Assembly: GCA_964605225.1 (NCBI GenBank)
Contig: CAZSAY010000004.1
Span: forward strand, 1 to 60,658
Length of the DNA stretch: 60,658 nucleotides
Reading direction: 5' to 3'
Origin: an uncultured Thermodesulfobacteriota bacterium
GTDB lineage: Bacteria; Desulfobacterota; GWC2-55-46; JADFVP01
Shown: one piece after another, positions 72 through 12,887 of the stretch
Layout of the letters: every line of letters starts with the position of its first letter
How positions within the stretch are numbered: the stretch's first letter is position 1
The notes under the pieces: generated by a model
What the model saw: the letters and a program-made list of their open reading frames with translations, nothing else
Database searches by the model: none
What the model was told of the DNA's origin: nothing
Made by a program: the position numbers and the translations under genes

Positions 72-1136
72 TTATGTAGCCTCTGCCGGAGGCTCGGCGT
101 GTACGCTGGAGGGCTTTTCAAGTTTTCTCGTATCCACTCCCCTCAGTCTTACCAAAAGGGCCTTCAGCGGGTGGTTCACCGTGTCCATGACGGCCGTTGG
201 TTCGTAGCCGCAGTGCACCATGCAGTCGGCGCATTTTGCGTTCCTGTCATATCCGTAGCTATCCCAATCCGTCTTCTCCATAAGTTCTTTGTAGGAGTTT
301 GCGTAGCCTTCGTTGAGGAGGTAACAGGGCATCTGCCAGCCGAATATGTTTCGCGTAGGGTTACCCCACGGCGAACACCTGTAGTCTTCGTTGCCTGCCA
401 GGAAATTGAGAAAAAGACTGCTGTGGTTGAACTTCCATCCCCTCTTCGCCCCCTCTGCCAGTAATTTTCTGAAGATGAGAACGGCGTCTTCGCGTCCAAG
501 AAAGTCTTTTTTTTCTCTGGCGTTGCCGTAGTGAAAGGCCGGTGAGAGCGTCATGCCCTCTACGCCGAGACCTGTTATGAAGTCAAAGAGGGCTATGGCC
601 TCGTCGATGGACTCTCTTCCGTAGATAGTTGTATTGGTGGTTACGCGAAAGCCTTGTTTTTTGGCGAGTCCTATGGCCTCCACGGCGCTATCAAAGACGC
701 CCTCACTGGAGACGAGTTTGTCGTGCCGGTCTTTAAGGCCATCGAGATGAACGCTGAAGGTCAGGTATGGGCTCGGCTCGAATAGCTCCATCTTGCGTTT
801 GAGGAGCAGGGCGTTGGTGCAGAGGTATACGAACTTTTTTAGCCCTACAAGTCCCTTTACGATCTCACCTATCTCAGGATGGATAAGGGGCTCGCCTCCG
901 GGTATGGATACAACCGGCGCGCCGCACTCAAGGGCCGCGTCTATACACTCATCTACGCCGAGCCTTTTTTTAAGTGTCTCGGACGGGTAATCAATCTTGC
1001 CGCATCCCGGGCATGCGAGGTTGCATTGAAAGAGGGGCTCAAGCATGAGGACCAGCGGAAAGCGTTTCTTTCTCTTTAGACACTGCCCTGTTATATAAGC
1101 GCCGATACGTACCTGTTGTATAAGCGGAACACCCAT
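72..1136 (-). CDS. hpnH: Adenosyl-hopene transferase HpnH (radical SAM)
   Basis: N-terminal FPLVLMLEPLFQCNLACPGCGKIDYP (CxxxCxxC); C-terminal KCADCMVHCGYEPTAV typical of HpnH; hopanoid gene context. Confidence 0.93.
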   Translation of the reverse strand: MGVPLIQQVRIGAYITGQCLKRKKRFPLVLMLEPLFQCNLACPGCGKIDYPSETLKKRLGVDECIDAALECGAPVVSIPGGEPLIHPEIGEIVKGLVGLKKFVYLCTNALLLKRKMELFEPSPYLTFSVHLDGLKDRHDKLVSSEGVFDSAVEAIGLAKKQGFRVTTNTTIYGRESIDEAIALFDFITGLGVEGMTLSPAFHYGNAREKKDFLGREDAVLIFRKLLAEGAKRGWKFNHSSLFLNFLAGNEDYRCSPWGNPTRNIFGWQMPCYLLNEGYANSYKELMEKTDWDSYGYDRNAKCADCMVHCGYEPTAVMDTVNHPLKALLVRLRGVDTRKLEKPSSVHAEPPAEAT

Positions 1137-1165: not shown

Positions 1166-2080
1166 TTAAATCGGAAGGCTGAACTTTACGTTCTCATGAG
1201 TTACTTCAATATTTTTTAGCGTTATATCCGCCGCTATTTTGCAGAGGTATTCTATAACCTCCTGTACGAGTATCTCAGGGGCCGAGGCCCCGGCCGTAAT
1301 GGCCACGCACCGGGCGCCTTTAAGCCACTCGTCGGATATGTCTTCGGCGGAGCCTACAAGGTATGAGGGCACGCCGTACCTTGAGCCGAGCTCGCGGAGG
1401 CGGTTCGAGTTGGAGCTGTTTTTGGCGCCTACTACGATAAGGATATCCACGTCTTTTATAACGGCCTTTACGGCGTCCTGCCGGTTCTGCGTGGCGTAGC
1501 AGATATTTTTTTTCCTTGGGCCGCGTATGCCCTTGAATCGAGTCCGCAGGGCCGCCACTATTTCGGCCATATCGTCTACGCTTAGCGTGGTCTGCGTAAC
1601 AAAGGCCAGTTTATCCGGGTCTTTTACCTCAAGGGCCGCCACGTCTTCCGGTGAGGATACAATGTGCATACCTTCCTTTATCTGTCCCATGGTGCCCACT
1701 ACCTCGGGGTGTCCGGCATGTCCTATGAGTATCTGCTCACAGCCCTCCGTGGCGTTACGGCGCGCTTCTCTGTGAACCTTTGTAACAAGGGGACAGGTGG
1801 CGTCGATGACCATGAGATTACGGGACGCGCCCTCTTCCTTAACCTTTCTGGAGACGCCGTGGGCGCTGAAGATAACCACGGCGCCGTCGGGAACCTCGTT
1901 GAGTTCGTCTACGAAGATGACGCCTTTTTTCTTAAGCCCATCGACAACGTGGCGGTTGTGAACTATCTCATGGCGCACGTATATGGGCGTGCCGTACTTC
2001 TCAACGGCAAGCTCAACGGTTCGCACGGCCCGTTCCACACCGGCGCAGAAACCTCTTGGTTTTGCAAGCAGTAGGTCCAT
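1166..2080 (-). CDS. ispH: 4-hydroxy-3-methylbut-2-enyl diphosphate reductase
   Basis: [54 protein letters not shown] motifs; three Fe-S cysteines present. Confidence 0.96.
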
Positions 2081-2100: not shown

Positions 2101-3090
2101 TTAACAGTAATGGTGCCCTCGGAACCACTCCACGGCGTCGCGTAGCGCCTCGGCGGCGGGCCGCGGGCTGTATCCAAGCTTTGCCTTTGCCCTGGCGCTT
2201 GAGAAAAACATATATTTTTTGGCCATCCTTACCCCGTCTTTCGTAAGCATGGGGTTTTGGGCCTTCGTTAGCCTTGCCCACGCTTCGGCTACGTGCGCAA
2301 GGGGCATTACGATACCATGGGGTAGCCGCATCCTTGGCGCCGGCCTTCCCGTTATTTCGGCAAGTTGTTCAAGTATCCCGGCAAGGGTCATGTTATCTCC
2401 GCCAAGGATGTAGCGCTCTCCCACAACCCCCTTTTCCATGGCGAGTATATGTCCCTCGGCCACATCATCAACGTGCACAATATTGAGTCCCGTATCCACA
2501 TATGCTGGCATCTTGCCGGAGACGGCGTTGACTATGATGCGGCCCGTTGGCGTTGGTTTTATGTCGCGCGGTCCTATGGGCGTAGATGGGTTCACGATGA
2601 CGGCCCGAAGACCCTTTTCGGCGATGAGCCGCATAACCGCCTGCTCCGCGAGGAATTTGCTTCGTTTATAGTGGCCTATCATATCGCTTAGCGCCGAGGG
2701 CGTTGTCTCGTCGGCAGGGGTTCTATCGGAATTGAGCCCTATCGTGGCCACGCTACTCGTATATACGATACGGCCCACCCCGGCACTCAGGGCCTCCTCC
2801 ATGATGAACTGCGTCCCACCCTCGTTGGCCTCGTACATGGCCTTGGGGTTCGGGACCCAGAGGCGGTAGTCGGCGGCCACATGAAAGAGGGCCTCACATC
2901 CCTTCAGGGCTTTTTTAAGAGATGCCCTGTCTGTAAGGTCCCCTGTCTGCACCTCCGTGTCAAGGCCGATAATATTTGACCGGTCGCTGCCGGCGCGGAC
3001 AAGGAGACGCACTTCGCGGCCTTTTGCCAGAAGCGCCCGTACAAGGGCCGAGCCGACAAACCCCGTTGCGCCTGTAACAAGGGTACTCAT
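2101..3090 (-). CDS. hpnA: Hopanoid-associated NAD-dependent sugar epimerase/dehydratase HpnA
   Basis: TGATGFVG Rossmann motif, FHVAADYRLW, YKRSK catalytic YxxxK, NPSTPIGPRDIKPTPTG, MPAYVDTGLN. Confidence 0.9.
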   Translation of the reverse strand: MSTLVTGATGFVGSALVRALLAKGREVRLLVRAGSDRSNIIGLDTEVQTGDLTDRASLKKALKGCEALFHVAADYRLWVPNPKAMYEANEGGTQFIMEEALSAGVGRIVYTSSVATIGLNSDRTPADETTPSALSDMIGHYKRSKFLAEQAVMRLIAEKGLRAVIVNPSTPIGPRDIKPTPTGRIIVNAVSGKMPAYVDTGLNIVHVDDVAEGHILAMEKGVVGERYILGGDNMTLAGILEQLAEITGRPAPRMRLPHGIVMPLAHVAEAWARLTKAQNPMLTKDGVRMAKKYMFFSSARAKAKLGYSPRPAAEALRDAVEWFRGHHYC

Positions 3091-4154
3091 TATCTTAAGA
3101 CTTCTCTAAAACCCTTTTTATCTCCCATGGAGGAGCCATGGCCCCTGGGCCCCTGCCCTGCCTTTTTATCTTTTCCCTTAAGACCCGTGAGAAGGGCGAG
3201 GCTCGTCCGCATGGTCTTAAGAGGCTCGCCAAGGGCATGGGATACGAGTCTCGCGCAACCCAGGACGCAACCCGGCTCACAGGGCTTGTGGCGATTATTA
3301 GTACGTATATCACTGGTCGTAAAATCTTCAATGGGCATTGAAAACTCGCTGTTCTGACTGCAGAACTGCACCTTTCCGGCGCCGTTTACATAGAGGAATT
3401 TACTCCCGCCGAGGCACTTCCAGGGGCGTGAATAATCGCCCATGAGGGCCTCTTCGGCGTTACGGCGGTAAAGGTTCATGCCGGCAAAGAGTTTATGTTT
3501 TTTTAGAAGGCTAACGTATCGAGCGCCTTTTATGGCAACACGGCCTCCCGGGCCGTGAAGCAGGGAAAATCCGAAATCAAAAGGGAGCCCCTTCAGAAGG
3601 GCGCGGAAACTTTCATACTCGCCGCAGGTCTCTTTTGTGAGCACGGACTGTACCTTTACCTTGAAGCGGGCCTTTTCGGCGAGCATCTTAAGCCTTGGGA
3701 GAAGGGACTTCAGGGATTTATCGGAGCTCAAGGTGGGGCTTGCAGAGTCAACGCTTATCTGCATCATATCAAGGCCCGCCTCGTTAAGCCCCGCTACAAT
3801 CTCAGTGGTAAGGAGAAAACCGTTGGTTATGAGCGTAACGATGTTGCCACTGCCTCGTAGTCCCTTTATGTAAGAGACAAGGGGGACGATATCTCTGTGC
3901 ATCAGCGGCTCGCCGCCGAGAAGATCGTAGACCATGACGCCAAGGTCATCAAGGCGGTCAATGCGTGCCGTAAGCACAGGGAGAGGCGGAGCGGGCGCGC
4001 CCGTTGTGTATTCGTTACAGTACCCGCAGGAGAGGTTACAGTCCGTAGTGACGACTACCTGCGCGTAAAGGGCCCTTCTGTCATAGAGCCTCTTTAAGCC
4101 GCGCATGATGAAGGCAGGGCCGGGTTTGCTGGATTTTTGTCTTGCTACTCTCAT
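3090..4154 (-). CDS. Radical SAM protein of unknown function with Cys-rich (SPASM/twitch-like) C-terminus
   Basis: CNLSCGYC motif, GGEPL, LITNG; further Cys in CLGG...FCSQ...PCEPGCVLGC; stop abuts the hpnA start; start could be 4106. Confidence 0.85.
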   Translation of the reverse strand: MRVARQKSSKPGPAFIMRGLKRLYDRRALYAQVVVTTDCNLSCGYCNEYTTGAPAPPLPVLTARIDRLDDLGVMVYDLLGGEPLMHRDIVPLVSYIKGLRGSGNIVTLITNGFLLTTEIVAGLNEAGLDMMQISVDSASPTLSSDKSLKSLLPRLKMLAEKARFKVKVQSVLTKETCGEYESFRALLKGLPFDFGFSLLHGPGGRVAIKGARYVSLLKKHKLFAGMNLYRRNAEEALMGDYSRPWKCLGGSKFLYVNGAGKVQFCSQNSEFSMPIEDFTTSDIRTNNRHKPCEPGCVLGCARLVSHALGEPLKTMRTSLALLTGLKGKDKKAGQGPRGHGSSMGDKKGFREVLR

Positions 4155-4347: not shown

Positions 4348-5661
4348 TCAGTAGCGCTCGAAGTTGGTGGCATTTCCCGAGGCCATCTTTCTCTGCGAGA
4401 TGTTCATCACCCATGATGTTATAGCCGATAGCGAGGTGGGTAGCGGTAGACGGTGGAGTATGGATGGCCAGGAGTAAAAATCCCTGTACATTTCGCTGAT
4501 GCCCTCTGCAAGCTCATCGGGGGTGAAGTTTTTCGGGTTTACCCTCGCCGAGATTCCGGGCCAGCGGTTGAGGTTATCAGGGTCGAGGATGCGTCCCTCG
4601 GTGAGGTATTTTTTGTACACAGGTGTGCCCTTGTAGGGGCAGAAGGAGTTGAAAAAGGCCACATGCACCTTCTGAGTCTTGAGAAAATCAAGGGTAGTGC
4701 GAAAATCCTCTACGTGGTCCGTATCCCAGCCAAAGATGAGGTTGAAGCTGAAGCTGATATCAAGGTCTCGCAGGGCCATGATTACATCTTTAAGGGTTCC
4801 CGCCTTTGAGGTCTTTTTGTGCATGCCGTCAAGGGTGTCCTGTTTGATGCTCTCGATGCCGAGGTTCACATGGAGGAGTCCGCTTTTTTTCGCGAGGACC
4901 ATGAAGTCTTTCTCAAGGACGCGGTTGGCCGTCCAGAGGGCGCTCCACCGTAATTTCAGGGGGATAAGGGCCTCCATAAGCTTCATGGTGCGGCCGCGGT
5001 TACCGGAAAAGGTGCTGTCGGCGAAGAATATGCGTTTGCTTCCCGTGGCCTTTATCTCGGCGATGACCTCTTCCACGGGACGCATGCGGTATCTGGAGCC
5101 AAGGTAAAAACGTTCGGCGCAGAACTCGCATGAGAAGGGACAGCCGCGGCTTGTCTGAACGGCTACGGTATGAAAGCGCGTGAATGTGCGCGGCTCAAGT
5201 AGGTCTCTACGGGGTAGGGGAAGGTTCAGAAGGTTGTGAAACTCCTTTGCGTGGTAGGAACTCTTAAGTTTTTTAGCGCAGAGGTCCTTGAATATCTCCG
5301 GCAGTACCACCTCTCCCTCGCCAACGGCAACGGCATCGCAATGGGCGGCGGCCTCGTCACCGTAAAAAAAACAGTGAGGCCCGCCGAGTATTACGGTCAC
5401 TCCCTTTGCCCTGAACTTGTCGGCTATTTCATAGGCGCGAAGCGAATTTATGGTCCATACGGTGATGAGGACAAGGTCGGCGGGCCAGTCCATATCAAGG
5501 TCCTGCGTCCTCTCGTCCGTAAGCCTGACCTCGCTACCCTCGGGCATGAGCGCCGCGAGGTAGGCGATGGTCAGGGGCATGAGGTTGAGCTTCTTCGTCT
5601 TGAAGAGTTTCCTGCTGTGCGCGGCGGCGAAATGAGTGGGCTGTATGATGTGTATTTTCAT
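4348..5661 (-). CDS. Cobalamin-binding (class B) radical SAM protein
   Basis: N-terminal B12-binding domain (VILGGPH, GEGE), TSRGCPFSCEFC, FADSTF, GIES, IFGWDTD. Confidence 0.9.
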   Translation of the reverse strand: MKIHIIQPTHFAAAHSRKLFKTKKLNLMPLTIAYLAALMPEGSEVRLTDERTQDLDMDWPADLVLITVWTINSLRAYEIADKFRAKGVTVILGGPHCFFYGDEAAAHCDAVAVGEGEVVLPEIFKDLCAKKLKSSYHAKEFHNLLNLPLPRRDLLEPRTFTRFHTVAVQTSRGCPFSCEFCAERFYLGSRYRMRPVEEVIAEIKATGSKRIFFADSTFSGNRGRTMKLMEALIPLKLRWSALWTANRVLEKDFMVLAKKSGLLHVNLGIESIKQDTLDGMHKKTSKAGTLKDVIMALRDLDISFSFNLIFGWDTDHVEDFRTTLDFLKTQKVHVAFFNSFCPYKGTPVYKKYLTEGRILDPDNLNRWPGISARVNPKNFTPDELAEGISEMYRDFYSWPSILHRLPLPTSLSAITSWVMNISQRKMASGNATNFERY

Positions 5662-5789: not shown

Positions 5790-6836
5790 TTAAGGGTCAG
5801 GTGTTTTTTTATAAATGAGGGCAAGCATTACTCCCGTAAGTATCATGAGGAGCTCTCTACCCCTTCTTATAAGGCTCATGGCAAAGCCTGTCTCGGGGCC
5901 CATGCCCATGAGTACGGCGATGGCCGCTTTGCCTGTCTCCTGCGTACCCATGCCCGCAGGTACGGGAATTATGGCGGCTACGATGATGGTGGCGCACTCG
6001 AAGAGCCCGGCGCCGGTAATGCCGAGATCAACACCATTCGTGCCGATTACATGGGAGATGGCCATCCATTCAAGGGCCGCTGTAAACCACATGCCCATGT
6101 AGCAGGCATAGGCCGCCATGGCCCGTCCCGGGGCCCCTTTTATCTCCTTTGAGGCCGCGACATCAATATGGAGAAAACGGCGAAGCCCCCGTAGCCGTCT
6201 CGGCACGCGGAACCTTACGCGGTAATAGCCGCCAAGGAGCTGACGCCCCACCTGACTCCAGAGCACGATTAGCCATAGAAAGACGGTCATGGCCACCATG
6301 AGGCAGGCCATGGTGATAAAGGTCGCTCGCCATGAGGGGCCGCCTATGCCATGGAGGGCGGCGCTCAGGAAGACAAAGGCCCCAAAGGGTCCAACGGCGG
6401 CAACGTGCAGGAACTTTGCCGCCGCAAGGGCCATGAAGGCGGAGTTTTTGCCCTCTCCCCTGCCTAAGGCTATGAGTTTGTAAGGTTCTCCGCCTATGCC
6501 GCCCGTTGGCATGGCGTAGTTGAGTACCTCGCCTATGTAGCGCGTCCGTGTAAGGCTCAAGATGGTAGTGTTCTGCCAGCCCGCTGAGCCGCGTCTTGTG
6601 CCCAGGAGCCAGAGAGCGAAGGTGCCGAGGCACTGCTGAAGCGCATAGGCCCCCACTACGAAGATAAAGCCCGGCCACCAGCCGCCGGAGAGCTCCTTCC
6701 AGACCTCACCGGGCCCGAGATGCCAGACAAGGTAGATGGCGAGAAGCAGTCCTCCTGCTATGAGAAGGGGCTTTAGAGCGCGGCTTTTTTCCCTGCCCTT
6801 ATCCTTAAGAGTATTACGAGAATCGAGTATATCCAT
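5790..6836 (-). CDS. Lysylphosphatidylglycerol-synthase TM / flippase-like membrane protein (HpnL-like)
   Basis: Multiple hydrophobic segments, GEVLNYAMPTGGIGGEPYK and PVPAGMGTQE...RRGREL motifs of the UPF0104/LPG-synthase TM family; start position uncertain (64-nt overlap with upstream gene). Confidence 0.75.
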   Translation of the reverse strand: MDILDSRNTLKDKGREKSRALKPLLIAGGLLLAIYLVWHLGPGEVWKELSGGWWPGFIFVVGAYALQQCLGTFALWLLGTRRGSAGWQNTTILSLTRTRYIGEVLNYAMPTGGIGGEPYKLIALGRGEGKNSAFMALAAAKFLHVAAVGPFGAFVFLSAALHGIGGPSWRATFITMACLMVAMTVFLWLIVLWSQVGRQLLGGYYRVRFRVPRRLRGLRRFLHIDVAASKEIKGAPGRAMAAYACYMGMWFTAALEWMAISHVIGTNGVDLGITGAGLFECATIIVAAIIPVPAGMGTQETGKAAIAVLMGMGPETGFAMSLIRRGRELLMILTGVMLALIYKKTPDP

Positions 6837-8161
6837 GTACCGATAGTCACTATCCAGAGAAAACCGCCGAGCCAGTCCAGTATGGCAAGGGGAAAGAGGA
6901 GGTAGGAAAAATCACGGCTCGTAAGGGCCTCCACTACCTTTTTAAGGGACCCGTCCGCGGACCCCCGCTCTTTTCTGTACTTATAGGGCCTTAAGAGGGG
7001 AGAGACGGCGATGACGCTGGCCAGGACCCCTAAAACAGCGAATATGGCCAGCGCGTTCCATGGGCCGGGCACGCCGCCGGCCTTCTGACCCATGGCGATG
7101 CCGGAGAATATGGCGATATGCGCGGCGTTGTCAGCAATCATATCATACCAGAAGCCAAGGGGCGTTGCCTTTAATAAAAGCCTGGCGAGCTCGCCGTCAA
7201 CGCCGTCTATGATGGAATGAATCTGAAAGAGCGCGGCCCCGAGAAGCCCCCATGCAGGGGCGTTGCCCCTTGAAAAGGCAAGCCCCGCCAGGAGTCCCAC
7301 GGCGAGGGTAAAGGTAGTGACCATGTTGGGCGTTACACCGAAGCGCCAGATACGGGTGCTGATAAAGAGGCTCACCCTGCGGTTAACGTGCCGGGCCATG
7401 AAACCATCGGCTGGTTTTACAAGCGAGGCGTAGAGTTTTTTTTCGGCCTCACTGATGTCCCCGGCAGTGTCTACATCCTGCCAGTATCCGCCCCTTATGT
7501 TTTGGGCCTTGAGTTTTCTTTTTTCCCCGAGCACGCGCATTATATCCGATATGCCGGGGGCCTGCCCCGCCTTTTGGGCGGCCTTTCTGACCAGCTCCGG
7601 GTTTAGGACGAACATGCCCGTATCAATGGCATCGTACCCGGTGAGGTCTTTTCCTATGGCGGAGATAAACCCGTGCTCTACCTTTACAAGGGTGGCGTCA
7701 TCAAGGTCGCCGTTGAATGTGTTCTTTTCCTCTACCACAAGCCTGGGCACGCCGTCGCTCTTGAATTCATCGATGGTCTCCTCCAATCGTCGGGGGCTGA
7801 AGAGGTGGTCTGACATCAAGAGGGCGAAGGGCTCATGAAGTCCATCAATACCGGCGAGGAGGCTTACTCCGTTTGGTTCAGTGTAACGCCGATTTTCTAT
7901 AAGGGTAAGTTGGCATCCCCCCGGGGTAAGCCCCGGCAGACGGGCGCGCATGACCTCGGCCTCATGTCCGATTACTATGATAAAATGTGTGATACCGGCC
8001 TTTGCCGCCGAGTCCATGACGCGGGATATCAGGGAGACTCCCACAAGGGGCAGGAGGGGCTTGGGCAGGGTTTTGCCGTGCATGCGGGTCCCCATGCCGG
8101 CCGCTACTATAACGGCCGCTCTTACCCCTGTTGAGGATACGTTTTTTTCGCTTCTTTTCAT
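6773..8161 (-). CDS. Bifunctional nucleotidyltransferase / CDP-alcohol phosphotransferase (IPCT/DIPPS-like architecture)
   Basis: N-terminal AAGMGTRM...PKPLL NTP-transferase motif; C-terminal DGVDGELAR-x8-G-x3-D-x3-D CDP-alcohol phosphotransferase signature with TM helices. Confidence 0.88.
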   Translation of the reverse strand: MKRSEKNVSSTGVRAAVIVAAGMGTRMHGKTLPKPLLPLVGVSLISRVMDSAAKAGITHFIIVIGHEAEVMRARLPGLTPGGCQLTLIENRRYTEPNGVSLLAGIDGLHEPFALLMSDHLFSPRRLEETIDEFKSDGVPRLVVEEKNTFNGDLDDATLVKVEHGFISAIGKDLTGYDAIDTGMFVLNPELVRKAAQKAGQAPGISDIMRVLGEKRKLKAQNIRGGYWQDVDTAGDISEAEKKLYASLVKPADGFMARHVNRRVSLFISTRIWRFGVTPNMVTTFTLAVGLLAGLAFSRGNAPAWGLLGAALFQIHSIIDGVDGELARLLLKATPLGFWYDMIADNAAHIAIFSGIAMGQKAGGVPGPWNALAIFAVLGVLASVIAVSPLLRPYKYRKERGSADGSLKKVVEALTSRDFSYLLFPLAILDWLGGFLWIVTIGTWIYSILVILLRIRAGKKAAL

Positions 8162-8434
8162 ATAAAAAGCCCGTTTATTGCAGAGATGGCTTGTATTTCA
8201 TGCCTTGCTGTAGCAATATGTCTTCCTGTAGTATCTCTCTATTAAGGCGATACTCGTTTACGGGTGTTGTTTATTAGAGGCGGTCTGTCTTTTATGTAAA
8301 TTAAGATAATAAGACCTCGGGGCGTTGCCGCGGAAAAGATATCATAGACACTTGTAAAAGACAACCTGAAGAGGCTTTACCATAGGGGGTCTTACTCTAA
8401 GGCCCACAATAACCGGGTAAATGGGAATATTATA

Positions 8435-11125
8435 TTGAAGCTTAAGAGCGAAAAAAGGGGTTTTACGGGAAGGGTGGTCTCGTGGTGGGTGGCCTTTGCA
8501 AGCCGCCACGCCTGGCAGACCGTAATCCTTTGCCTCCTTCTAACCGTCTTTTTAGGCAACTACACCATACATCATATAGGGATAAATACGGACGCCTCGA
8601 AGATGATATCGGAAAAACTCCCGTGGCGGCAGAGGTATCTATCCTACAAAGAAAAATTTCCACAGTTCTTCGGTGAGATAGCTATAGTCATTGATGGCGA
8701 TACGCCGGGGCTTGCCGATAACGCCGCGAAGAGGCTTACAAAGCGCCTTCGAGGCGAGGTCAAGCTATTCAAGAGCGTCTATGAGCCCGGGGGCAATGAT
8801 TTTTTTCGCAGGAACGGTCTACTTTACCTGAGTACCGAAAAGTTGGAAGACCTCTCCGATCACATGGCCGCTGTTCAGCCTTTTCTTGGCTCCCTCATGG
8901 CGGACCAGAGCCTCGGAGGGTTCTTTTCCATGCTTACCACGGCCATGGACGCCGTGGAAAAGGGCGACGTTGACGAGGGGTTTGAGCTCGCGCCCGTGCT
9001 CGGAGGTGTAAGGGACGCGGCCGGGGCCAATGTGGAGAATCGATTTTACCGCCTCTCCTGGCAGGACCTCATGCTTGGAAAAAAGAGCGCGCCATCGGAT
9101 AAAAGAAGGTTCATAGTAGTTCAGCCGAGGCTAAGTTTCTCCGAGCTATTTCAGGGCGAGTCGGCCATGGTGAAGATTCGGGCCCTTGCAGGGGAGTTGT
9201 CCCTCGATAGTGATCACGGAGTGCGAGTGCGCCTCACAGGTTCCGTGGCCCTTGCCAACGAGGAATTTAAGAGCATAAGCCGGGGCGCGGGCCTTGCGAG
9301 CATAGCGGCCCTCATCGCTGTCCTGATAATCCTCTTCGTGGCCCTCCGAAGTCTCACGCTCCTCATCTCATCCTTTATTACCCTTATCTCCGGGATCATC
9401 ATTACCGCGGCCTTCGCCGCCTTTGCCGTGGGTAAGCTCAATATGATATCCATGGCCTTTGCCGTTCTCTATATCGGCCTCGGCATTGATTACGCCATAC
9501 ACCTCTGCCTCCGTTACCGGGAGTTGGTCCATGAGGGTTCTCCTCATGAAGAGGCCATTAAAAAGGCCGCCAGCGACGTGGGGGCCTCTCTGGTTCTCTG
9601 CACCATTACCACGGCGGCGGGCTTTTATTCCTTTATCCCAACGGCTTACTCCGGTGTCTCGGAGCTTGGTCTTATCTCGGGCACGGGTATCTTCATAAGC
9701 CTCGCTGTGAGCCTTACGTTCCTGCCGGCCCTTATATCTCTTCGGCCCCTCCGCGTACCTGCCGCGGTAGAAGTGGCGAAGCCGCTTACAAAGACCCCTT
9801 CTGCCGGTTTTATGGCATGGGCCCGGCAGAGGAGATTTCCTGTCATGGTTATCCTCGCCCTTGTCGGGGCCGGAGGCACGGCGCTCCTTGGTTGGGTCTC
9901 TTTTGACGGTAATCCCATGAATCTGCGTGATGCCTCAATGGAGTCCGTGGCCACCTTTAACGACCTTATGAAAGAGCCCGGCTCATCGCCCCTTACCATA
10001 GTGGCCGTTAAGGAAAAGGATACCGTGAAAGAGGCGGCACGAAAGCTGAAGGCCCTTGCCCTTGTGGACAAGGCCGTGCAGATCGAAGACTTCATACCGT
10101 CCGGGCAGGACGAAAAACTCGATATCATAGAGGAGCTATCCATGCTCATGGGCCCGGAGCTTGATACGCCCGGAGGCGGAACTCCCGGGCAGGGCGCTAA
10201 TAAGGACGGCGAAAGCAGGCTTAATGCCATTAAGGGGCTTACCGCCGCTCTTGCGCGGTACGGGGCAGATGAAGGGGTAAGTGCCGGGGAAAGGAGAGCC
10301 GCAAGGGAGGCGCGTATCGCACTTGGCAGACTTGAGGTAAAGCTTGGGAAGATGGATGGCGCGGCCATGAGACTTAGCCTGGATGAGTTTGAAAAAAGCC
10401 TTCTGGCCTCTCTACCCGACAGGCTAAAGGTTCTGCAGGCTTCTCTTACCGCCGGCCCCGTGGCCTTCAAGGACCTACCCGCCGAGCTTGTAAACCGCTG
10501 GGTGGGAAAGGACGGAGAGAGGCTTATAAAGGTCTTTCCTAAAAAAAATATCTCAGACCTCAATGACCTTACTGATTTTGTGAGGGCCGTTAGCGGTGCC
10601 CTGCCATCTGCAACGGGGCTCCCCGTTGTAATAGTGGAGTCAGGCCACACCGTTGTAAAGGCCTTCAGGCAGGCCTTTATCTATGCCCTTATATTTATCA
10701 TCATCATACTGCTCGTCCTCCTTAGAAATGTAAAAGACACGGCCCTTGTGCTCCTTCCGCTTCTCTATGCCGGTATCCTCACCGGGGCCGCCACTGTGAT
10801 ACTGCAGATACCCTTTAACTTCGCCAATATCATCGCCCTGCCGCTCTTTCTTGGCATAGGCGTTGATAACGGCATACACGTTGTCCATCGTGCGCGCTCC
10901 GCTTCTTCTACCCTTACGGACGGGCTCCTCGGCTCTTCTACCTCAAAGGCCGTATTCTACAGCGCCCTTACAACGGTTATAAGCTTCGGGGGGCTGGCCT
11001 TTTCAAGGCACAGGGGCATGGCGAGCATGGGTCATCTTCTTATCATAGGGATTGTTTTGACGGTTATCTCCACCCTTTTTGTCCTGCCCCTGCTCCTTCC
11101 GGGAGGTGAAGATAAAGGCCATTAA
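8435..11125 (+). CDS. hpnN: Hopanoid transporter HpnN (MMPL/RND family)
   Basis: 896 aa, two MMPL repeats, GLGIDYAIH and GIGVDNGIH motifs, FFRRNGLLYL, divergent from the hopanoid operon. Confidence 0.9.
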   Translation: MKLKSEKRGFTGRVVSWWVAFASRHAWQTVILCLLLTVFLGNYTIHHIGINTDASKMISEKLPWRQRYLSYKEKFPQFFGEIAIVIDGDTPGLADNAAKRLTKRLRGEVKLFKSVYEPGGNDFFRRNGLLYLSTEKLEDLSDHMAAVQPFLGSLMADQSLGGFFSMLTTAMDAVEKGDVDEGFELAPVLGGVRDAAGANVENRFYRLSWQDLMLGKKSAPSDKRRFIVVQPRLSFSELFQGESAMVKIRALAGELSLDSDHGVRVRLTGSVALANEEFKSISRGAGLASIAALIAVLIILFVALRSLTLLISSFITLISGIIITAAFAAFAVGKLNMISMAFAVLYIGLGIDYAIHLCLRYRELVHEGSPHEEAIKKAASDVGASLVLCTITTAAGFYSFIPTAYSGVSELGLISGTGIFISLAVSLTFLPALISLRPLRVPAAVEVAKPLTKTPSAGFMAWARQRRFPVMVILALVGAGGTALLGWVSFDGNPMNLRDASMESVATFNDLMKEPGSSPLTIVAVKEKDTVKEAARKLKALALVDKAVQIEDFIPSGQDEKLDIIEELSMLMGPELDTPGGGTPGQGANKDGESRLNAIKGLTAALARYGADEGVSAGERRAAREARIALGRLEVKLGKMDGAAMRLSLDEFEKSLLASLPDRLKVLQASLTAGPVAFKDLPAELVNRWVGKDGERLIKVFPKKNISDLNDLTDFVRAVSGALPSATGLPVVIVESGHTVVKAFRQAFIYALIFIIIILLVLLRNVKDTALVLLPLLYAGILTGAATVILQIPFNFANIIALPLFLGIGVDNGIHVVHRARSASSTLTDGLLGSSTSKAVFYSALTTVISFGGLAFSRHRGMASMGHLLIIGIVLTVISTLFVLPLLLPGGEDKGH

Positions 11126-11242: not shown

Positions 11243-11878
11243 CTATTGCTTGTCGTAGGCGGCGATCTTCTTATCGAGTTTTTTGATAAGACTGGCGAAA
11301 CTCTTTTTTTTCAGTATGTAGGTGTACTGGGCGCGTTTAAGAGAGAGGTCGCTTACGCCGTTGGCTATGACGTTTATGGCGCGCCACTGGCCCGTTTTTT
11401 TTGATAGCACATAGTCGAGGTGGATGATTTCGCCATCGGACTTTAGAAGCTCCGTTCGCACAAGGAGACGCCCCCTTCTAAGGGGTTTACTTGAAGTTAC
11501 ACTTAACTTCTCTCCCGAATAACCATCAAAGCGCGCCGCGTATGTGGAGATACTGAGCACCCTAAACCTCTTTATGAGTTTGGCGCGTTGCTCATCGGTA
11601 AAGGTCTTCCATATCCTGCCCACGGAATAACGCGTAATGAGGGCAAAGTCATAGGTGCCCTCTACTACGGGTTTAAGCCGGGCATAGCGCCCGCTGTAGC
11701 CGAGCGTTTCAGCGTCCTTCATGACTGAGATAAGGGTCTTGTTAAGGTTTTCTATGAGGCGTTCGCCCTTGTTCATGCTCTCGGCGCGGACCGCTGAGAT
11801 AGAGCAAAGAGAAGTAATGAGCAATGCCAGGCCCAGAACCTTGAAATGCTTCAGCGCCTTGCTTATATACATATCCAT
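11243..11878 (-). CDS. hpnM: Hopanoid-associated MlaC/Ttg2D-family periplasmic lipid carrier HpnM
   Basis: Signal peptide, RYARLKPVV..YDF, STYAARFDGYSGE, WRAINVIANGVSDLSLKRAQY. Confidence 0.8.
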   Translation of the reverse strand: MDMYISKALKHFKVLGLALLITSLCSISAVRAESMNKGERLIENLNKTLISVMKDAETLGYSGRYARLKPVVEGTYDFALITRYSVGRIWKTFTDEQRAKLIKRFRVLSISTYAARFDGYSGEKLSVTSSKPLRRGRLLVRTELLKSDGEIIHLDYVLSKKTGQWRAINVIANGVSDLSLKRAQYTYILKKKSFASLIKKLDKKIAAYDKQ

Positions 11879-12266: not shown

Positions 12267-12887
12267 TTGAAGAAGATTTTAGTCGCGGTAATGGCACTGT
12301 TCTTTCTGACCATTTTATACACTCCCTCAGATGCCCGGACAGGCCCTGTCACGGAGCGTATAAAGACCACCATTGATAGCGCCCTTGGCGTCCTCAGAGA
12401 CCCGGCCTTGAAAGGCAAGGCCCATAGAGCGGAGCGGCGTGTCCGCATACGAGCCGCTATTGAAGACACCATAGATTTTAGAGAGATGAGCCGCCGGTCC
12501 CTTGGCCTCAACTGGCGAAAGAGGACCGCCGCCGAGAGAAAAGAGTTCACCTCACTTTTCAGCGACCTTCTTGAAAATTCATACATAAGCAAGATTGAGC
12601 AACAGACCGATGAGAAGGTCATTTATCTTGAGGAGAGGATAAATAAGAAGCACACAAGGGCCCTTGTGAAGACAAAGGTCGTTACGAGTCAGAAGACGGA
12701 GATCCCCATATTTTACAGGATGATGATGAAGGATGGCAGGTGGGTGGCCTATGATATCGTTATCGAGGGCGTATCCCTTGTGAGTAACTACCGTACGCAG
12801 TTCGGTAAAATAATCAAGAGGTCTTCATATGAGGACCTTGTGGATAATCTCAGGAAAAAGGTGGAAAAGATAAAATCCGCTTCCTGA
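12267..12887 (+). CDS. MlaC/Ttg2D-family lipid-binding periplasmic protein
   Basis: Signal peptide, IDFREMSRRSLG..W, YDIVIEGVSLVSNYRTQF. Confidence 0.88.
   Translation: MKKILVAVMALFFLTILYTPSDARTGPVTERIKTTIDSALGVLRDPALKGKAHRAERRVRIRAAIEDTIDFREMSRRSLGLNWRKRTAAERKEFTSLFSDLLENSYISKIEQQTDEKVIYLEERINKKHTRALVKTKVVTSQKTEIPIFYRMMMKDGRWVAYDIVIEGVSLVSNYRTQFGKIIKRSSYEDLVDNLRKKVEKIKSAS

Follow-up and report, generated by a model that had tools for sequence, protein, structure and literature searches.

The window analysed here is a stretch of 60,658 nucleotides from an uncultured Thermodesulfobacteriota bacterium (assembly GCA_964605225.1, contig CAZSAY010000004.1), and represents one contig of a 2.13-Mb metagenome-assembled genome (MAG) that is 87% complete. 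It carries a hopanoid gene cluster whose minus-strand operon is headed by an open reading frame (ORF) at 6773-8161. This ORF encodes a fusion protein of 462 amino acids (P0001), in which a cytidylyltransferase of the IPCT type is joined to a CDP-alcohol phosphotransferase. The altered active site of the protein and its gene neighbours suggest that, unlike its relatives, which make a heat-protective solute, it produces an inositol-phosphate lipid that has not been described before and that may be a hopanoid. The close homologues of the fusion, which share at least 54% identity with it in the genomes sampled from the window's order, are referred to as clade H. From the fusion gene, the operon runs through genes for a flippase-like protein, a B12-binding-domain radical SAM protein (B12-rSAM) and a second radical SAM protein (rSAM2) to hpnA, ispH and hpnH, with hpnN and hpnM divergent. 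The features assigned in this part of the window are as follows:

6773-8161, minus strand: IPCT-type cytidylyltransferase/CDP-alcohol phosphotransferase fusion of clade H, 462 amino acids (Pfam, NCBIfam, alignment with 4MND, AlphaFold 2 fold)
7118-7207, minus strand: catalytic motif DGVDGELAR-x8-G-x3-D-x3-D, followed by N345 and H348 in place of the canonical R and D, a clade-specific pair (alignments; role of the Arg by way of R94 of Mycobacterium tuberculosis PgsA1, PMC6506517)
5790-6836, minus strand: LPG_synthase_TM membrane protein, MprF-flippase-like and weakly HpnL-like (Pfam, NCBIfam)
4348-5661, minus strand: B12-binding-domain radical SAM protein of an uncharacterised family (scores not those of HpnP, HpnR or HpnJ)
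3090-4154, minus strand: radical SAM protein rSAM2, with CNLSCGYC, a C-terminal Cys cluster and a MoaA/BlsE-like core (profile and motif)
2101-3090, minus strand: HpnA, hopanoid-associated short-chain dehydrogenase/reductase (SDR) (TIGR03466, 514.5 bits, above cut-off)
1166-2080, minus strand: IspH (NCBIfam profile search)
72-1136, minus strand: HpnH, adenosylhopane synthase (TIGR03470, 509 bits)
8162-8434, no strand: divergent intergenic region between the fusion operon and hpnN (ORF map)
8435-11125, plus strand: HpnN, hopanoid transporter of the resistance-nodulation-division (RND) type (TIGR03480, 981 bits)
11243-11878, minus strand: HpnM, carrier with MlaC fold (TIGR03481, 211.5 bits)
12267-12887, plus strand: second MlaC/HpnM-like protein (TIGR03481, 89.7 bits, below cut-off)

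HpnA, HpnH, HpnN and HpnM of the window all score above their NCBIfam family cut-offs. The original prediction, made from the bare DNA, had placed the fusion at the head of a hopanoid operon, and this position is confirmed by HpnA, IspH and HpnH downstream on the same strand and by the divergent HpnN and HpnM. The sole early start codon of the flippase-like gene overlaps the 3' end of the fusion gene by 64 nucleotides, and the overlapping pair is common to four other loci (G280, L002, G060 and G505). The neighbouring protein had been predicted to belong to a flippase family. It is a member of LPG_synthase_TM (MprF-flippase-like; 78 bits, cut-off 33.4), but it misses the cut-off of the HpnL model (TIGR03476; 51.8 against 195.65 bits) and resembles HpnL only weakly. 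In the intergenic region only weak consensus promoter matches were detected, and promoter and terminator scans gave nothing decisive.

The fusion protein and its active site

Both domains of the fusion are recognised by Pfam. NTP_transf_3 covers residues 16-149 (E 3.6e-13), with NTP_transferase also matching the N-terminal domain (E 2.2e-11), and CDP-OH_P_transf (PF01066) covers residues 277-383 (E 3.4e-10; 41 bits against a cut-off of 22). The signature D-G-x2-A-R-x8-G-x3-D-x3-D is complete, reading DGELAR-LLLKATPL-G-FWY-D-MIA-D at residues 322-344 (7130-7198, minus strand). Among the NCBIfam models, that of the bifunctional IPCT/DIPPS (NF041135) ranks first and spans both domains (227.1 bits, E 3.9e-67). 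This score lies below the equivalog cut-off of 580 bits, which taken alone is weak evidence, since the model was built on Thermococcales. The cut-off of the phosphatidylinositol phosphate (PIP) synthase model NF045883 was not reached either (37.5 bits, cut-off 170). Residues 14-459 align with the IPCT/DIPPS of Archaeoglobus fulgidus (4MND; HMMER, E 1.3e-43), and the fusion also aligns with the IPCT structure 2XME (E 1.7e-24). The AlphaFold 2 model has a mean pLDDT of 86.1. Its best Foldseek match is 4MND (E 5e-24), followed by 2XME and 4JD0, and for the latter two the fold match reaches a TM-score of about 0.85 on the target. The membrane domain comprises six helices in this model (residues 254-461), and the signature motif lies on TM2-TM3. 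The original prediction had described an NTP-transferase domain fused to a CDP-alcohol phosphotransferase with the full motif, and had assigned to this architecture the established activation of a polyol phosphate with CTP and its transfer to an acceptor alcohol. The domain searches, the 4MND alignment and the predicted fold bear out the architecture, the chemistry attached to it is right, and the observation is correct far beyond chance.

The reasoning about the acceptor site draws on alignments and on the published work on PgsA1, the PIP synthase of M. tuberculosis. In the fusion, the last Asp of the motif is directly followed by Asn (D344-N345), and the same residue is found in 61 of 61 database proteins with at least 47% identity to it. 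Arg occupies the equivalent position in more distant fusions, one of which is named an IPC transferase/di-myo-inositol phosphate phosphate (DIPP) synthase, in about 150 loci from two collection scans and in the A. fulgidus DIPPS (4MND), which reads DSILDR. A group comparison brought out one further sharp switch, at position 348, where 100% of clade H members carry His and 99% of the Arg class carry Asp; as this class is defined by position 345, the switch at 348 alone counts as an independent observation. The IPCT domain of clade H showed only conservative differences in the group comparison, with no radical change at residues conserved in the family.

In PgsA1, the catalytic Asp93 is followed by Arg94, at a position that is always basic in enzymes using inositol phosphate. 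Docking places Arg94 in contact with the phosphate of the substrate inositol phosphate, and the R94Q substitution nearly abolishes activity (PMC6506517). As clade H is devoid of the equivalent Arg, it would by homology have lost a ligand for a phosphorylated acceptor, which argues against the synthesis of DIPP and in favour of a neutral alcohol as acceptor. A quick maximum-likelihood run with IQ-TREE, with support from the SH-like approximate likelihood ratio test (SH-aLRT) only, places clade H on a long stem (SH-aLRT 100) within a group of fusions without this Arg (non-Arg; support 92) and apart from the Arg-type enzymes.

Distribution of clade H and its gene neighbours

Clade H is present in 6 of the 31 genomes sampled from the window's order. 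The gene shc occurs in exactly the same six; the other 25, most of them 96-100% complete, do not have it. G402, a carrier of clade H beyond these six, also has shc, and three further genomes of the window's own family are devoid of inositol-3-phosphate synthase (MIPS), fusion and shc alike. Three other genomes of the order encode a 35%-identical fusion of the Arg type (DR) directly beside MIPS and do not contain shc. These pairs look like the canonical solute operon, and they provide a natural control set for the synthesis of di-myo-inositol phosphate (DIP) in this lineage (G503:C114, G506:C78 and G511:C61; L218-L220). In a phylum sample of 401 genomes, shc was found in 5 of 25 and 5 of 24 carriers of canonical-type fusions, against a base of 70 of 401. 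Non-canonical fusions occur there in five genomes from two families, all five with shc. The proposal that IPCT/DIPPS-like genes as a whole track hopanoids was rejected, because carriers of the DR type have shc at about the base rate.

The original prediction had pointed to ino1 as a gene to look for, and the search was positive. The sole MIPS found in the assembly lies on contig C64, between MlaF-MlaD-MlaA-like-MlaC-like genes and divergent shc-hpnG. In G280, from the same genus, a single contig carries hpnM and hpnN, then the fusion, flippase-like, B12-rSAM and rSAM2 genes with hpnA, ispH, hpnH and a 180-aa ORF (ORF180), then hpnG and shc, and finally MIPS. C64 can therefore be regarded as the continuation of the window's cluster. 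In G515, of the same genus, the C64-type piece is contiguous with a window-type operon, as in G280. Apart from the fusion, PgsA and PssA are the CDP-alcohol phosphotransferases detected in the assembly, which leaves the fusion as its only evident consumer of inositol phosphate; profile searches of the assembly gave no PIP synthase, HpnI or HpnJ above cut-off.

Several other genes of this genome deserve mention. On C64 (L200:175-9242), MlaF, MlaD, a 554-aa MlaA-like protein and an MlaC/HpnM-like protein adjoin MIPS and shc-hpnG, and this Mla-type set fits the HpnS/HpnM proposal for hopanoid transport (bioRxiv 10.1101/2025.07.29.667474). The 180-aa ORF between hpnH and hpnG belongs to no family and is conserved, being 89% identical in G280. 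At C102:381-2879, a family 2 glycosyltransferase (GT2) that is weakly HpnI-like (72.8 bits, cut-off 310) lies beside a B12 radical SAM protein that is weakly HpnJ-like (157 bits, cut-off 577.6). With both scores far below cut-off, the pair may be unrelated.

The close-packed, same-strand placement with bona fide hpn genes is conserved as synteny in G280, G515, G401/L002 and G060, and it is rearranged in G505. G060 belongs to another genus (60% identity) and keeps the gene order, with rSAM2 missing. G505 belongs to another family (54-56% identity) and is also without rSAM2; its arrangement is flippase-like<fusion / hpnN / <MIPS <hpnM / B12-rSAM>hpnA>hpnH / <shc. Outside the order, the metagenome contig L116 shows hpnA <> fusion > B12-rSAM, so that B12-rSAM directly adjoins the fusion there. 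In L118, a shc-associated B12-rSAM lies 3 kb from the clade H fusion, and L119 reads MIPS > / < rSAM2-like / > fusion. L003, from a MAG labelled Planctomycetales (55% identity), shows rSAM2-like <> fusion, a lipoprotein gene and MIPS, and the shc-hpnA-ispH-hpnH cluster of this MAG sits on another contig. The putative lipoprotein between the fusion and MIPS (L003:2472-3332) is Pro/Ala-rich, partly masked and without a Pfam match.

In the phylum sample, 16 genomes encode orthologues of B12-rSAM (at least 48% identity), and 15 of these also have shc. As most of these genomes do not contain the fusion, B12-rSAM is a hopanoid-associated enzyme in its own right. Its identification as HpnP, HpnR or HpnJ was rejected, the scores being far below the cut-offs. 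Among solved structures, its closest relative is AprD4, a diol dehydratase (6FD2, E 1.9e-14). B12-rSAM is often found beside HpnA, an SDR, an arrangement that recalls the dehydratase-reductase pair AprD4/AprD3. No hpn genes were detected in the ±1.5 kb flanks of the orthologues from other families. The second protein, rSAM2, has a CxxxCxxC motif and a C-terminal Cys cluster and weakly resembles MoaA and BlsE. Genes of this type adjoin non-Arg fusions in the window, in L003 and L119 (clade H) and in L020 (non-Arg). Another radical SAM type, whose members are 46% identical to each other, adjoins non-Arg fusions in L011, L005 and L008. With these two radical SAM families taken together, shc is present in every testable genome in which a radical SAM gene lies directly beside a non-Arg fusion.

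Hopanoid association is also seen in a separate clade of the non-Arg group. In loci of the Methylomirabilota type (L011:5672-12508; L120, L121 and L122), genes for an MlaC-like protein, an HpnN-like RND protein, another MlaC-like protein, Shc, MIPS, the fusion and a radical SAM protein follow each other in one direction, and the order shc>MIPS>fusion>rSAM is a second, cross-phylum case of this association. The MIPS of these loci is of the eukaryote type, and their fusion has Gly after the catalytic Asp. A link to hopanoids is seen only in some subclades of the non-Arg group and does not extend to the whole group. In fusions of the Latescibacterota type (L012, L013, L026 and L006), Lys or Val replaces the motif Arg and Asn follows the catalytic Asp. 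They adjoin MlaC-like and MMPL/RND genes in genomes without shc, a context that suggests another exported inositol-phosphate lipid.

The probable reaction and its product

Most likely, CDP-inositol is formed by the enzyme and then used to place phosphoinositol on a lipid alcohol. We tentatively favour a hopanepolyol as the recipient of the phosphoinositol, and would give this full reading somewhat less than an even chance. The MIPS of the same cluster would make L-myo-inositol-1-phosphate, which the N-terminal domain would condense with CTP to give CDP-inositol. The C-terminal six-helix membrane domain would then transfer phosphoinositol to a non-phosphorylated lipid alcohol, releasing CMP. 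The acceptor would most likely be the terminal C-35 hydroxyl of a C35 bacteriohopanepolyol formed by Shc, HpnH and HpnG, possibly with HpnA, and the product a phosphodiester-linked inositol hopanoid. In our view, the terminal C33-C35 triol of bacteriohopanetetrol (BHT) resembles glycerol. The MprF-flippase-like protein encoded by the overlapping gene could move the product across the inner membrane, and HpnN and the MlaC-type HpnM proteins could carry it outward. For the two radical SAM enzymes a tailoring role is probable, with the cyclitol, the CDP-cyclitol or the side chain as the target. Confidence is high that the donor is CDP-inositol, moderate to high that the acceptor is a non-phosphorylated lipid, moderate that this lipid is a hopanoid, and low for the functions proposed for the flippase-like and radical SAM proteins.

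A hopanoid acceptor had been part of the original prediction. To the extent that it links the enzyme to hopanoids, the proposal holds: the co-occurrence with shc, the clusters that recur in rearranged order and the missing Arg all speak for such a link and against a plain DIP synthase. That the acceptor is a hopanepolyol is still what we infer. Slightly more guardedly, a new composite class of hopanoids may exist, in which bacteriohopanepolyol is joined by a phosphodiester to myo-inositol or to a cyclitol modified by radical SAM enzymes. It would have a dedicated clade of enzymes, a flippase-like partner of its own and related shc-MIPS-fusion-rSAM modules in several phyla, including Methylomirabilota.

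An ordinary IPCT/DIPPS would condense CDP-inositol with inositol-1-phosphate to DIPP, on the way to the solute DIP, and would stand in a hopanoid island by chance. The end-to-end homology and fold match with the A. fulgidus enzyme, the intact catalytic motif, the presence of MIPS and the naming of some relatives as DIPP synthase in public annotations agree with such a role, but we regard it as very improbable. The NF041135 score is 227 against 580, the Arg present after the catalytic Asp in all canonical members sampled is Asn in each of the 61 clade members, with the paired change of Asp to His, and clade H is a separate, long-stemmed branch. The same order also contains canonical enzymes adjacent to MIPS, at only 35% identity and without hopanoid genes, and the fusion overlaps the gene of a membrane flippase-like protein. 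A stronger competitor, though one that we still hold to be unlikely, is an inositol glycerolipid synthase resembling BEPIS, which would transfer phosphoinositol from CDP-inositol to diacylglycerol or (di)alkylglycerol and yield lipids of the phosphatidylinositol type. The clustering with hopanoid genes would then reflect membrane remodelling that is co-regulated or co-transferred, and no substrate would be shared. The BEPIS of Rhodothermus, encoded in an operon with MIPS and IPCT (PMC4587543), provides the only known case in which CDP-inositol has been shown by experiment to serve lipid synthesis. The alternative pathway of Bacteroides, which also has an LPG-synthase-like neighbour, is predicted to work alike (PMC9246714), and the genome studied here has no other route to inositol lipids.

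A number of points weigh against a hopanoid as the acceptor. Glycerolipid is the known lipid acceptor of CDP-inositol chemistry, and no phosphate- or inositol-linked hopanoid was found in the literature searched; recent hopanoid surveys leave HpnL and HpnA unassigned and do not mention the fusion gene. Among 18 further non-Arg genomes, only four have shc, and precisely these four have a radical SAM gene as the next gene behind the fusion; shc is missing from Saprospiraceae, Latescibacterota and others (14 of 18). The loss of the Arg was for this reason rejected as a general mark of a hopanoid acceptor, and the occurrence of sister non-Arg clades in shc-less genomes, which suits the glycerolipid alternative, indicates a changed acceptor that is not specifically a hopanoid. 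The clade H loci of G402, L118 and L119 contain no shc, hpnA, hpnH or hpnN within the available flanks, and L003 resembles the latter two in this respect. Related genomes are not independent of each other, and physical linkage by itself would produce co-occurrence; perhaps three to five independent lineages are involved, and the counts are not a statistical test. The linkage in families f1 and f114, both of one order, may represent one inherited or transferred island, so that the six of six are not six independent events. The glycerolipid alternative, for its part, has to face the presence of shc in every testable clade H genome, that is, in all six of the order, whose other 25 are without it, and in G402. 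In addition, the fusion heads an hpnA-ispH-hpnH operon in an association that outlasts rearrangement, MIPS itself adjoins shc, and 15 of the 16 genomes with the partner B12-rSAM also have shc.

Two further schemes, which together we consider improbable, would alter the substrates. The radical SAM enzymes could convert inositol phosphate or CDP-inositol into a different cyclitol or polyol, which would then be passed on to some acceptor, or the nucleotidyltransferase could activate the phosphoribosylhopane of HpnG, which the membrane domain would couple to inositol. HpnG's expected product is indeed a sugar-1-phosphate (review, PMC13459092). Radical SAM genes of two families recur right beside non-Arg fusions, the nearest solved relatives of rSAM2, MoaA and BlsE, act on nucleotide-linked substrates, and AprD4, the nearest solved relative of B12-rSAM, is a dehydratase of cyclitol-glycoside diols. 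On the other hand, the N-terminal domain is nearest to IPCT, without radical change at the family-conserved positions, G060 and G505 do without rSAM2, and the radical SAM proteins are only weakly similar to characterised enzymes.

Hopanoids are major membrane lipids of bacteria and the source of abundant molecular fossils. To our knowledge, their polar head groups are few, and none of them is linked through phosphate. A phosphoinositol hopanoid would combine a sterol-like lipid and an anionic head group of the phospholipid type. It would change the lipidomic detection of hopanoid-producing anaerobes and would offer candidate functions for orphan genes of hpn clusters, such as those of the HpnL-like protein and the new radical SAM families. 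If the acceptor is a glycerolipid instead, clade H would be a bacterial phosphatidylinositol synthase of the Kennedy type. The Asn-for-Arg signature would separate clade H from the DIP synthases, a label carried by some public records of its close relatives.

Comparison with known systems

The bifunctional IPCT/DIPPS of hyperthermophiles (A. fulgidus AF0263, 4MND/2XME, NF041135) shares with the fusion its two-domain architecture, its fold, the CDP-alcohol phosphotransferase motif and a genomic link with MIPS, and very likely also the first half-reaction, from CTP and inositol-1-phosphate to CDP-inositol. However, the fusion is only about 27% identical to it in the Foldseek alignment, scores below the equivalog cut-off, has Asn and His in place of Arg and Asp, and belongs to a separate, long-stemmed clade. 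It also stands in a hopanoid operon with a flippase-like gene, whereas IPCT/DIPPS occurs in a simple MIPS-DIPPS pair. In view of these differences, the acceptor of the fusion is probably not inositol-1-phosphate.

The pathway of Rhodothermus marinus consists of MIPS, IPCT and BEPIS, the last being a dialkylether glycerophosphoinositol synthase (Jorge et al. 2015, as cited in PMC4587543). According to that description, CDP-inositol there donates the head group to a lipid alcohol that is not phosphorylated, as is proposed here, and MIPS, cytidylyltransferase and transferase are encoded together. In the loci studied here, MIPS belongs to the same cluster as the fusion or is directly adjacent to it (L003 and L119), and IPCT is part of the fusion, while the Rhodothermus genes, which can be compared by description only, are separate within their operon and stand in an ether-lipid rather than a hopanoid context. 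In Bacteroides vulgatus and Prevotella, an alternative inositol-lipid cluster has been predicted, for which a Kennedy-type route was proposed and is unconfirmed (Heaver et al. 2022, PMC9246714). As in the present case, it combines an NTP transferase and a CDP-alcohol phosphotransferase beside MIPS, with a membrane protein resembling lysyl-phosphatidylglycerol synthase nearby. It differs in having separate genes, a HAD hydrolase, sphingolipid or diacylglycerol products and no hopanoid genes.

The HpnI/HpnK/HpnJ route, which leads to BHT glucosamine and BHT cyclitol ether, is likewise a head-group module of hpn clusters that acts on the C-35 of BHT and involves a radical SAM protein with a B12 domain and a membrane protein of the HpnL type. 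In that route a glycosyltransferase creates an ether or glycosidic link from UDP-GlcNAc, whereas the fusion would use CDP-alcohol chemistry, from which a phosphodiester is expected.

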